In this document: piece after piece, positions 38,910 to 41,354 of the stretch | Layout of the letters: every line of letters begins with the position of its first letter | Numbering within the stretch: the stretch's first letter is position 1 | NCBI GenBank assembly: GCA_944390355.1 | Contig: CALXPT010000006.1 | Location: 5,826 to 69,825 of the forward strand | Reading direction: 5' to 3' | DNA: 64,000 nucleotides | DNA from: an uncultured Alphaproteobacteria bacterium | Lineage (GTDB): Bacteria; Pseudomonadota; Alphaproteobacteria; RF32; CAG-239 | Notes under the pieces: model-generated | Database searches by the model: none | Seen by the model: only the letters and a program-made list of their open reading frames with translations | Told to the model about the DNA's origin: nothing | Translations under genes and position numbers: made by a program

Positions 38910-41354
38910 TTAAGCCTTTTTTGGCTGTTCAAAAGGATTTTCTTCCTCATCCGAAACATCAAAGGCATCATCTTTCAACCACCAATCATCATCATCGGAA
39001 GACGGCTTTTGTTCATCGGCCTCTGTATCTTTGGGCTCAATGCCGTCAGAAAACAAAGCCGCCTCAACATCGGACGTATTCCGAACGGCATTCTCCAATT
39101 CATCACCGCCAAAACCAACGCTTTCATCCTGTTCCGAAAACGTATCATTATCAAAATCCTCCGTTGATTGCACAACATCGACGTCAACATCAACATCGTC
39201 ATAATCATCTTCTTCGACCAAATCCGCCTGCACATCAGAATCCTGTACATCAATCGCATATCCGCCGGCAAGAACGCTTTGCTGACTTTGTTGTAAAACC
39301 TCCTCAACCGAAGGCACATCAACATCTTGCGCATTTCGGATTCGCACCAAATCGGCATCCAAAAAACAAACAGCCTTTTTCTGCGACAACAGGTTAAAAC
39401 GCGCATCAAGATTAAACCGCTCCGCCGTCGCCTGTACCGGCAAATCATAAAATCCTTTAACAAGCAGCCAATGGAGTGAATTGCTAAGCTTTTTATATTC
39501 GCGCAAAGAAATCAGTTCATCGGCAATTTTACGATAAAAATAAGCATCATTAACATTTCTTTTGCGCTTAGCCCAACCTTTTGCCTCCGTATTTTTACGC
39601 TGAACAGACTTAGCTCCGAACACGGCCAAAGCCCTGAATTGTCCGCTGAGAGCCACATTATCGGGAGCAAACAAGAGCTTAAAAGAACAAGCCGACACCA
39701 TATCTTCCAAAGCGTTTTTTCCATAAACTTCGCTAACCGCCTTCAACCCGTTTGTAAGCAGCAAAAAGCTGACATTACGTTCACTGCCGAACCGAACCCC
39801 TTTAGGCAAAGAACTAAACAGCGGCATTTTGTCCCAATCATCAATGACAAAGAGCATCGAAATTTTCTGTGCGGACTTATGCTTTTCAAGATTACGTTCA
39901 ATCAACATATCCATCATCAAACGCGACATAAAAGCAGCCTCCGGCGTATCGACGGACAAATAAACCGTATTCGGACACCACTCGCCGCGTTCATTTTTCA
40001 TTCCTCTGGCATATTTCAAAGAAAAATCGCTTGATGAAGTGCGTTCGCGCACGGACTTTGCCCGAAACACATCCCAATATTTAAGCAAACGCAAAAACAG
40101 CTCATTTTTAACCTCGGTCTGCAGAGAAGATAATTCTTTCAAACGCGCAATAATATCGGAAGCATAACCAAAGAACACGGCCTCTTTCAAAACATTTTGC
40201 AAAAACACATCCCAACCGTCCTCTTTTTTCTGCGCCTCAACATCCAAAAGCGAATCAAAAATCATCGCCAAACAAAGTTCTTTTCCTTTCCAAAGTTCGG
40301 GCACGCCGTTCCAGCTGCCGACCGGTAAATAATTTTTAACATCAAGATTTTTCACGCCGAGATTTTCAATTGCACTTTTAGCGGCATCATCAGGCATCAA
40401 AGCATAATAGCTGACTAAAATATCTTTATCTTCGGCATTAAAATAACCATTTTCAATCAAACTGTTTAACAAATAGTCATTAGCGCAGGCCTGTTCGATT
40501 TTAGCCACAAAAAAGCCCAGCAGAGTTTCGATTGCGACAACAAACAAATCCATCCAGTTTTTATCTGCCGTTTCAGGGCACAAATGAGTAGCCAACTTGT
40601 GCAAATAGAAGCCTCTTTTCTCACTTTTAGCAGGCAAATCCTTATCGGAGAGAGGATTCCACCTCGGCCAAAATTCATTTTTCTGAGGATTATCCGTTTT
40701 TTTCCAATCAAAGCAAAAAACCCTGCCTTGAGAAAAACGATGACCGGAAGTAAATTTAATCAAATCGCCGGTTGCATCAATAGCCACAACGCTGGCGGCA
40801 TTAGCCATCAAGATGGAAGGCACGGCGGTAGTAGAAGTTTTTCCCAAGCCATCGCCGCCCCACACCAAAACGGAAGTCGGAGCATTCGGCGACAAAATTT
40901 TTCCCTCGAACCTCCCCAAAAAAATAGATTGACCATGAGAGAGCGGCATTTTCTTAATATCTTCGGCCTTAGCGGAACGGCGGCAAAAACGATACCATAG
41001 ATTAAACGAACTGCGGCTCGACATATAAGCCTTAAAAACAAACACCAAGAACAAAAGCGGAGCAACCAAAGGGATATAGAGTGTCCATTTAGCCTGAGAA
41101 GCATTCCAAAAGGCTTTAAACCAAATTCCGTAAGCCCGAAACACTTCCCAAAAGTTTTCACGAACGACCAGCAAAAAGCGATAAATTTTATGGGTATTAC
41201 GGGTTGTAAAACCATGTTCGGCATATTGATACAAGACAAGAGTAATCAAATCGGCGACCCAAAAATAAATCACCGAACACAAAACGACAAACAAGGCCCG
41301 AACCCACCAAGCCCATTTGCGAGCTTTAATTCTTTTGAAATATAATCTTTCCAT
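38910..41354 (-). CDS. VirD4/TraG-family type IV secretion coupling protein (T4CP) with a long acidic C-terminal tail; orphan, with no adjacent virB/trb genes
   Basis: 2 N-terminal TM helices. 'VLVWGGDGLGKTSTTAVPSILMANAASVVAIDATGDLIKFTSGHRFSQGRVFCFDW' parallels the VirD4 block. Walker B-like 'LFVIDDWD'. C-terminal ~110 aa are very D/E-rich and include DVDVDVDV. Confidence 0.7.
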   Translation of the reverse strand: MERLYFKRIKARKWAWWVRALFVVLCSVIYFWVADLITLVLYQYAEHGFTTRNTHKIYRFLLVVRENFWEVFRAYGIWFKAFWNASQAKWTLYIPLVAPLLFLVFVFKAYMSSRSSFNLWYRFCRRSAKAEDIKKMPLSHGQSIFLGRFEGKILSPNAPTSVLVWGGDGLGKTSTTAVPSILMANAASVVAIDATGDLIKFTSGHRFSQGRVFCFDWKKTDNPQKNEFWPRWNPLSDKDLPAKSEKRGFYLHKLATHLCPETADKNWMDLFVVAIETLLGFFVAKIEQACANDYLLNSLIENGYFNAEDKDILVSYYALMPDDAAKSAIENLGVKNLDVKNYLPVGSWNGVPELWKGKELCLAMIFDSLLDVEAQKKEDGWDVFLQNVLKEAVFFGYASDIIARLKELSSLQTEVKNELFLRLLKYWDVFRAKSVRERTSSSDFSLKYARGMKNERGEWCPNTVYLSVDTPEAAFMSRLMMDMLIERNLEKHKSAQKISMLFVIDDWDKMPLFSSLPKGVRFGSERNVSFLLLTNGLKAVSEVYGKNALEDMVSACSFKLLFAPDNVALSGQFRALAVFGAKSVQRKNTEAKGWAKRKRNVNDAYFYRKIADELISLREYKKLSNSLHWLLVKGFYDLPVQATAERFNLDARFNLLSQKKAVCFLDADLVRIRNAQDVDVPSVEEVLQQSQQSVLAGGYAIDVQDSDVQADLVEEDDYDDVDVDVDVVQSTEDFDNDTFSEQDESVGFGGDELENAVRNTSDVEAALFSDGIEPKDTEADEQKPSSDDDDWWLKDDAFDVSDEEENPFEQPKKA

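Follow-up and report, generated by a model that had tools for sequence, protein, structure and literature searches.

Type IV coupling proteins (T4CPs) decide what type IV secretion systems (T4SSs) export, and they are nearly always encoded beside channel or relaxase genes. In the alphaproteobacterial VirB plasmid systems of Erythrobacter aureus (NZ_CP031358, WP_115418087.1) and Sphingosinicella (p1), the VirD4/TraG protein has two transmembrane (TM) helices followed by a nucleotide-binding domain (NBD) into which an all-alpha domain is set (2 TM-NBD-all-alpha-NBD), and its gene closes a virB2-virB11 operon beside relaxase and replication genes. An 814-aa protein with the same domain order is encoded in the stretch analysed here (the window, 64 kb of contig CALXPT010000006.1 from an uncultured alphaproteobacterium); however, it shares only 23% identity with the plasmid proteins, its gene is chromosomal and unlinked to virB genes, and it has a DD Walker B, a tail of roughly 115 aa ending in a conserved motif, and a pairing with a gene for a pentapeptide-repeat protein (PENTA). 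The same plasmid systems are also closest to the VirB4 of the clade to which the window belongs, at 35% identity.

The best structural matches of the window T4CP are Cagbeta (Cag5, 8dol) of Helicobacter pylori, whose all-alpha domain binds a dedicated partner, CagZ, and TrwB of R388. Both share 10-14% identity with it, lack the long acidic tail and its motif, and are encoded inside their own T4SS islands. C-terminal extensions that act as docking sites are present in TraD of the F plasmid, whose acidic tail binds TraM, and in DotL of Legionella, whose tail binds DotM/DotN/IcmSW/LvgA. The acidic stretch of TraD ends in aromatic residues, as does the tail of the window T4CP, which has a DotL/TraD-type extension beyond the NBD (aa 698-814), modelled as disordered and closed by a conserved WWL..F..NPF end. 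Both tail-docking systems are cited in PMC8740702, and the all-alpha domains and C-terminal extensions of T4CPs are established docking sites for substrates and adaptors (PMC8740702). In contrast to TraD and DotL, no TraM, DotM/DotN, IcmS/IcmW or LvgA family was found among the 25 window open reading frames (ORFs) scanned with Pfam, which include the immediate neighbours of the T4CP gene; the sole conserved neighbour with the potential of a partner is the pentapeptide-repeat protein.

Like the system of the clade described below, rvh of the Rickettsiales is an alphaproteobacterial chromosomal T4SS with dispersed genes. There, rvhD4 adjoins rvhB8-B11; in contrast, the window T4CP gene is isolated and has the pentapeptide gene as its immediate neighbour, and its hosts are gut bacteria with full envelope-synthesis genes. 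It also has no specific sequence affinity to PRK13897, which we take to be the NCBIfam model of the rickettsial VirD4 (17.9 bits, cutoff 728), scoring lower with it than with the IncP TraG (34.6) and CD1115 (51.3) models. A precedent for such a partnership exists in Rickettsia, where the T4CP RvhD4 binds the pentapeptide-repeat protein cREM-4, which co-precipitates with it (PMC11077975), and where secretion of another pentapeptide-repeat effector, SrfD, has been validated (PMC11258249); the likeness to PENTA that is drawn on here is one of protein type. The earlier note on the window, made from its sequence, had suggested an rvh-like system of the kind seen in obligate intracellular Alphaproteobacteria. 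Neither label is supported: the sources are gut and rumen metagenome-assembled genomes (MAGs), and the window encodes a full complement for cell wall and fermentation (MreB/MreC/PBP2/RodA/MurJ/Ddl and Pta-AckA); these sources and this gene content argue against an obligate intracellular lifestyle. What "rvh-like" describes is gene dispersal alone, a resemblance that does not prove membership. The best reading is that the window protein would work like a VirD4-type substrate receptor.

The 814-aa protein is a genuine T4CP by profile, motifs and fold. Its scores exceed the cutoff in three T4CP families of Pfam (PF02534, PF12696, PF10412), with 56.4 bits for T4SS-DNA_transf (cutoff 20.1), 25.1 bits for TraG-D_C (cutoff 22) and 20.7 bits for TrwB_AAD_bind (cutoff 20.5), and the fourth Pfam match listed, SteA-like_C, is far below its own (13.3 bits, cutoff 26.4). 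As judged from the NCBIfam equivalogs, all of which score far below cutoff, none of the named VirD4, TraG or DotL proteins is its ortholog. A parallel with Agrobacterium VirD4 "residue by residue", as had been claimed, exists locally, over aa 158-236, to which the match with the VirD4 equivalog PRK13850 is confined, and not overall (22.5 bits, cutoff 681). The AlphaFold2 model, built on 25 homologs, has a pLDDT (predicted local distance difference test) of 78.8, is confident over aa 130-690 with values above 90 for most of aa 140-580, and shows aa 245-438 as an all-helical insert that separates the NBD strand of Walker A from that of Walker B. With this model, a Foldseek search of the PDB gave Cagbeta first (8dol, E 1e-13, TMt 0.57-0.61) and TrwB next (1e9r/1gki, E 1e-7, TMt 0.60-0.67). 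The doubts raised in the earlier note, that the protein could match FtsK-type models only or lack an all-alpha domain, are not borne out: the T4CP models pass with no FtsK-only match, and the all-alpha domain is present in a TrwB/Cagbeta-like fold.

The ORF proved to be where it had first been placed, and its two N-terminal TM helices, the P-loop and the Walker-B-like LFVIDDWD were confirmed. Two hydrophobic 19-aa segments start at aa 15-25 and 88-95 (Kyte-Doolittle). Among 25 family members, the Walker A (GxxGxGKT, aa 166-173) is invariant at G171 and K172 and at least 90% conserved at T173, and the Walker B (hhhhDD, aa 501-506) is at least 90% conserved at both D505 and D506, the second acidic residue being Asp, not Glu. 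Across relatives this position reads DE, DD or DN, with DN or DG in a few family members; a DD-type Walker B would probably keep ATP binding, and the rate of hydrolysis may be altered. Despite its fast divergence the family keeps 87 columns conserved at 90% or more, 43 of which belong to the all-alpha domain.

The D/E-rich tail was also confirmed, with DVDVDVDV at aa 720 and 43 Asp or Glu among the 115 residues of aa 700-814 (37%, vs 11% in the core). The earlier note had stressed the poly-acidic character; however, the acidic linker with the (DV)4 run (aa 700-785) is conserved less than any other part of the protein (mean conservation 0.22, 0/86 columns at 90% or more) and differs in length and sequence among homologs, while the terminal motif DDWWLxExAF..NPF is kept. 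All 25 members have W792, while W791 and F798 each reach at least 90% conservation, and among 75 T4CPs of the clade a DDWWLxExAF-type motif is present in 66 and NP[FVL] in 64. When profiles were searched exhaustively, more distant relatives emerged as a second tier, including three proteins of ~1000 aa from other lineages (P0114, P0117, P0120) with far longer acidic tails and the same motif, which in these three reads EAWWLGEDSF..NPF, GNWWLDDNVF and GDWWLDDEQF. Because the motif occurs in distant long-tailed relatives, WWL..F..NPF is an old trait of a T4CP subfamily, borne on a flexible acidic linker of variable length. We know of no earlier description of the motif.

The homology search for the T4CP gave about 100 clusters (102 homologs) at 30-58% identity, nearly all unnamed metagenome proteins, and a genome scan with one genome per species gave 101 loci with T4CP, 80 of which, from 80 different assemblies, were examined (loci are cited by L-numbers). 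The sources are uncultured Alphaproteobacteria of human, chicken, ruminant and other guts, labelled CAG:495, Candidatus Scatocola (filed by NCBI under Rhodospirillales, and presumably the GTDB order RF32) or "uncultured Azospirillum", and one T4CP locus per species-level genome was kept among the 80.

The T4CP forms a conserved gene pair with PENTA, judging by gene order across lineages. PENTA is immediately upstream of the T4CP gene in 76 of the 80 clade loci; this adjacency proves little, since the whole region is syntenic, and the informative cases are the distant relatives. In these, PENTA is directly upstream of T4CP in at least four unrelated chromosomal contexts, from which the conserved pair follows, where the two genes overlap by 1 nt or are up to 22 nt apart (in the window, 81 nt). 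Homology between PENTA and its distant counterparts reaches past the repeats into the C-terminal domain, and the tail-less T4CP relatives of L083-85 and L075 have no PENTA neighbour. The upstream pentapeptide protein had been named earlier as a candidate for interaction, which was apt given this conservation across contexts. A strict co-occurrence of the WWL motif and PENTA was considered and rejected: it fits the window's clade, L086, L087 and L093, and L083 and L075 have neither, but it fails in L094 and L095, which have PENTA and no motif, so that the pairing extends further than the motif does. The idea that a basic C-terminus of PENTA serves as a VirB/D4-type signal was kept as a hint only, the basic character being clear in distant homologs and weak in the window's clade; the last 30 aa have a median net charge of +2 in the window's clade and are positive in 78% of 82 homologs, clade and distant pooled. 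No description of this T4CP family, of its motif or of a T4CP-pentapeptide gene pair was found in the literature.

The idea of a scattered T4SS encoded elsewhere, put forward in the earlier note, finds support in relatives. L079 has three tandem VirB2-like genes ~6 kb from PENTA-T4CP on one contig, the first of which passes Pfam TrbC (39 bits), and a search with the VirB2-like proteins gave >1000 clusters from MAGs of gut Alphaproteobacteria, typically at 60-70% identity. A conserved chromosomal locus with the order VirB2-VirB2'-VirB2''-VirB3-VirB4 is present in L089, L099 and L101. The third VirB2 paralog is a "giant" VirB2-domain fusion of 362-1288 aa; VirB3 (96 aa) matches the reference VirB3 over its full length; and the 810-aa VirB4 proteins of different genomes share 79-84% identity with one another and 35% with VirB4 of the Erythrobacter plasmid. 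Close to one copy of the locus a possible VirB6 of 676 aa is encoded, whose match to TrbL/VirB6 stays below the threshold. Four ORFs after VirB4 (about 650, 220, 450 and 1400 aa) are conserved in the clade, and Pfam and phmmer gave nothing for them as VirB5-B11. Besides the single contig of L079, two more observations tie this locus to genomes with the T4CP. The pilin trio of L091 is found some 5 kb away from the same ATP12-AsmA-RluC block, and a further L091 gene scores 403 bits against window 60235-60936. One MAG, GCA_031263385.1 (L096/L097), combines a window-type T4CP in the usual synteny (contig 39) with VirB2-VirB2'-367 aa-VirB3 (contig 138). In these relatives (L079, L091, L096/L097, L089) T4CP, the pilin trio and VirB3-VirB4 occupy separate chromosomal sites. 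As a separate observation, a Tcp-like type IVb pilus cluster (T2SSF, T2SSE, PilO, secretin, TcpQ and unknown ORFs) stands back-to-back with the T4SS locus (L099 1-9565; L101 1-9578; L089 1-4180).

The reading that we consider probable is that the T4CP is an inner-membrane ring that serves this dispersed chromosomal T4SS, with PENTA as its dedicated client through the all-alpha domain, the terminal motif or both. The protein would be anchored in the inner membrane by its two TM helices, form the usual ATP-binding ring, and act as the substrate receptor of the VirB-type T4SS encoded at a separate locus (three VirB2 paralogs, VirB3, VirB4, possible VirB6). PENTA would be either a translocated substrate or a recruiting adaptor, recognised by the all-alpha domain and/or by DDWWLxExAF..NPF held out on its flexible acidic linker. 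The family, the fold, the conserved motifs, the vertical inheritance, the gene pair and the occurrence of a T4SS in the clade, and in one MAG along with this T4CP, are shown; the service of the T4CP to that T4SS, the binding of PENTA and the surface involved are inferred.

Several points weigh against this reading. No T4SS gene is present within the 64-kb window, nor within 10 kb of T4CP in 79 of the 80 loci, and the link of the T4CP with the T4SS is therefore one of co-occurrence alone, documented in three genomes. No VirB8, B9, B10 or B11 was recognised anywhere, which leaves a complete channel unproven. The T4CP is farther from the reference plasmid system (23%) than VirB4 is (35%), and a tail-less type closer to the plasmid VirD4 exists in related gut MAGs (L083), which could be the real T4SS partner if both types share a genome. 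The DD Walker B (DN or DG in a few members) makes ATPase turnover uncertain, and the predicted co-occurrence of motif and PENTA failed, as seen in L094 and L095. The mirror-tree signal in favour of the partnership, a partial distance correlation between T4CP and PENTA of 0.55 with housekeeping divergence regressed out, vs 0.01-0.31 for five neighbouring control genes, is only suggestive, as the pairs are non-independent.

It is unlikely, although not far-fetched, that the T4SS uses another T4CP, for example of the tail-less L083 type, and that the window type is a specialised paralog devoted to the single client PENTA or regulatory at the same channel. The presence of multiple T4CPs per secretion system is known elsewhere, and the L083 type ("Azospirillum sp. 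47_25" MAGs) is 32% identical to the plasmid VirD4, vs 23% for the window type, and likewise chromosomal and away from virB genes. However, no genome with both types was seen in the 80 loci from 80 assemblies, by a scan whose patterns would miss most L083-type genes, and the GC content of 0.49 vs 0.41 and the other synteny of the L083 type suggest that it belongs to another lineage and is not a second copy within one genome. The L083-type protein has 740 aa and no tail, and is encoded (L083-L085, 5522-13284) amid six ORFs without a Pfam family, four upstream (361, 476, 167 and 433 aa, the 167- and 433-aa products sharing an N-terminal domain) and two downstream (204 and 149 aa). A plasmid location of this type, hinted at by recurring contigs of ~51-57 kb, was ruled out by chromosomal contexts (flagellar export, MipZ, PGM). 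An intermediate T4CP with the family signatures and a canonical DEF Walker B is encoded in an AT-rich alphaproteobacterial MAG (L075 9716-11875, GC 0.30); it has neither tail nor PENTA, and its gene is flanked by a glycosyltransferase gene and rplT-pheS-pheT.

Improbable in much the same degree is a T4SS-independent envelope machine, with the T4CP recruited together with PENTA and possibly LIPO715 and without a functional tie to the VirB locus, either as a VirD4-type motor that feeds a TolC-like duct or as a motor regulated by a DNA-mimicking pentapeptide protein. LIPO715 is encoded upstream of PENTA and is present in 72 of the 80 loci. Its lipobox Cys is invariant, it has full-length homology to the OEP protein of L087, which scores E 8.6e-25 against Pfam OEP, and a SPOR domain was detected in 11 of 25 family members; such an OEP-SPOR fusion is unusual. 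A profile search of LIPO715 against the PDB gave noise alone, and its single-sequence model (pLDDT 38) is unusable. The T4CP never adjoins virB genes, yet in the RF32-type clade it shares a tight co-directional array with LIPO715 and PENTA, and its distances co-vary most with those of LIPO715 (partial correlation 0.69, above the 0.55 of PENTA and the strongest seen); a functional link between LIPO715 and the T4CP is uncertain. The orthologous cluster of L087 unites OEP, two HlyD-like adaptors, an M50 protease, PENTA and T4CP; the T4CP is much more diverged than VirB4; and the T4SS locus shows no recognisable outer-membrane core (VirB7/9/10). However, LIPO715 is not beside PENTA-T4CP in L079, L068, L086 and L093-L095, the window's clade lacks HlyD-like genes, adjacency of LIPO715 by itself is weak evidence in a region that is syntenic housekeeping DNA throughout, and T4SS genes coexist with the window-type T4CP in the same genomes. 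No T4CP is known to work without a VirB4-containing system, which also counts against a separate machine.

In L087 (GCA_002410125.1, 2307-13069), the two HlyD-like adaptor genes and the M50 protease gene separate PENTA-T4CP from the LIPO715 ortholog, the same oxidoreductase gene is divergently transcribed, and Ndk-DUF2066-AI-2E transporter genes follow downstream, as they do in window 56013-58589. An acidic-Trp string common to the three proteins was also tried as a candidate: DDDWF of PENTA is not conserved, and GDNWLEE of LIPO715, although the "WA...NWLE" there is conserved, was discarded as a common motif because that protein is periplasmic or outer-membrane. A bolder form, in which T4CP, PENTA and LIPO715 would make up their own envelope-spanning module, a VirD4-type motor on a TolC-like duct that replaces or supplements the VirB core, is a long shot. 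If true, this module would be a hybrid of type IV and type I secretion logic and could explain the unrecognisable VirB7/9/10 genes in these genomes.

It is very improbable that an FtsK/SpoIIIE- or HerA-type DNA translocase of chromosome segregation or anti-phage defence has been misread as a T4CP, although HerA and related proteins appear in the Foldseek ranks (E about 1e-7 to 1e-6) and the gene of the replication-associated ATPase RarA starts 8 nt past the T4CP stop. These ranks are below Cagbeta and TrwB, Cagbeta is the sole PDB entry found by sequence with the T4CP as query, all above-cutoff Pfam families are T4CP families with no FtsK_SpoIIIE or HerA match at E<=0.1, and PADLOC gave no match for T4CP, PENTA or LIPO715 in an anti-phage role. 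RarA is probably co-transcribed with the T4CP and adjoins it in 72 of the 80 clade loci; this adjacency is peculiar to the window's clade, the two not being neighbours in any other lineage. At the family level the translocase reading is refuted, a HerA-like fold similarity being expected for a shared ATPase superfamily.

The T4CP is, from its sequence context, a vertically inherited chromosomal gene under selection and not a remnant of a mobile element, as follows from the same housekeeping synteny across the family. The order TruA(-), GFO/IDH/MocA oxidoreductase(-), then LIPO715, PENTA, T4CP, RarA, RluC and AsmA is kept in 63-77 of the 80 loci, by which the chromosomal fixation proposed in the earlier note is borne out. 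GC is flat across the gene (0.41-0.45), like the flanks, and the mean pairwise distance is 0.62 for T4CP vs 0.13 for RarA. By tblastn, 8 of 72,556 plasmids give any match to the T4CP, and the best (E 5e-30) are Erythrobacter and Sphingosinicella megaplasmids at 22-23% identity, in which the homolog closes a canonical virB2-virB11 operon. The MAGs named "Lactobacillus sp." (GCA_031263385.1, L096/L097) and "Lactobacillaceae bacterium" (L068, JAISVX010000001.1) bear this alphaproteobacterial synteny block, and their labels are very probably wrong. A decaying remnant of an integrated conjugative element or plasmid without present function, which isolation from channel and relaxase genes and the unusually fast divergence would favour, has almost no likelihood and is effectively refuted by conservation, as the ORF is intact and full-length at the same locus in about 100 species, with Walker A, the 87 columns and the terminal motif kept and with no integrase, repeat or compositional break.

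Table 1. Coordinates of the T4CP, its parts and its neighbours in the window, and of the T4SS locus and PENTA-T4CP contexts in related loci.
Feature	Position or locus	Strand	Basis or remark
Divergent VirD4/TraG-family T4CP, 814 aa	38910..41354	(-)	ORF list, Pfam, AlphaFold2 and Foldseek, 102 homologs
N-terminal membrane domain, aa 1-125, two TM helices	40980..41354	(-)	Kyte-Doolittle; model helices H2-47 and H90-112
Walker A / P-loop GGDGLGKTS, aa 166-174	40833..40859	(-)	motif position and family conservation
Loop and all-alpha domain, aa 216-440; signatures PRWNPL, ANDY[FL]L, LSYY, P[VI]GSW	40035..40709	(-)	
Walker B LFVIDDWD, aa 501-508	39831..39854	(-)	DD where DE is usual
Variable acidic linker, aa 700-785, including (DV)4	39000..39257	(-)	pLDDT <50, low conservation
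Conserved C-terminal short linear motif DDDDWWLKDDAF...ENPFE, aa 786-810	38925..38999	(-)	
Pentapeptide-repeat protein PENTA, 453 aa	41436..42797	(-)	Pfam Pentapeptide 108.7 bits; likely true start about aa 11
OEP/TolC-derived outer-membrane lipoprotein with C-terminal SPOR domain (LIPO715)	42837..44837	(-)	opens co-directional array
RarA/MgsA AAA+ ATPase	37564..38901	(-)	Pfam MgsA_C 193.9 bits; context, not component
T4SS locus	L089 10001-20345; L099 10001-20342; L101 10001-20351		
PENTA-T4CP context	L086 and L093		FTHFS upstream
PENTA-T4CP context	L087/L088		after M50 protease
PENTA-T4CP context	L094 and L095		between lspA-PGI-MutL and AddAB

The immediate surroundings agree with the earlier description, with rarA on one side of the T4CP gene, the pentapeptide-repeat gene on the other and all of them on the minus strand. 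A six-frame phmmer search of the 64-kb window with two reference virB operons and the VirB2/3/4/6-like proteins of the clade gave no homolog of VirB2/3/4/5/6/8/9/10/11, and Pfam gave no relaxase, integrase, plasmid replication or partition family among 20 otherwise unassigned window ORFs. The claim that such genes are absent within 25 kb on either side was a slight overstatement, since the window shows 22.6 kb alone on its high-coordinate side. Promoter and terminator scans of 36000-46200 did no better than shuffled controls. Farther off, two tandem paralogous ORFs of 227 aa (58674-59357 and 59508-60191, plus strand; 49% identical) match no Pfam family and lack homologs in all 80 related loci. 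Two other ORFs (47156-49250, minus strand), one of 499 aa with an Lcl C-terminal domain below threshold (27.1 bits, cutoff 34.9) and one of 193 aa, occur in only 2-3 of the 80 related loci, and this segment looks like a lineage-specific insertion between TruA and RecX.

A whole clade of common uncultured gut and rumen Alphaproteobacteria keeps a T4CP that evolves fast yet stays at one housekeeping locus, with no linkage to the divergent chromosomal T4SS, and the pairing of a T4CP with a pentapeptide protein recurs in other alphaproteobacterial lineages. Notable too is the chromosomal T4SS locus itself, where one of the three pilin paralogs is a giant fusion and several clade-specific components resemble no recognisable family. 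The whole is a variant within the known T4CP/T4SS machinery, and it would be a categorically new system only if the TolC-coupled reading holds. If PENTA is a client, the two genes would form a minimal, genetically defined receptor-substrate pair useful for studies of substrate recognition, in which the compact conserved motif and the all-alpha domain, likewise conserved, are both easy to mutate, and they would also give a clue to the cargo that these gut bacteria inject and to its recipients.

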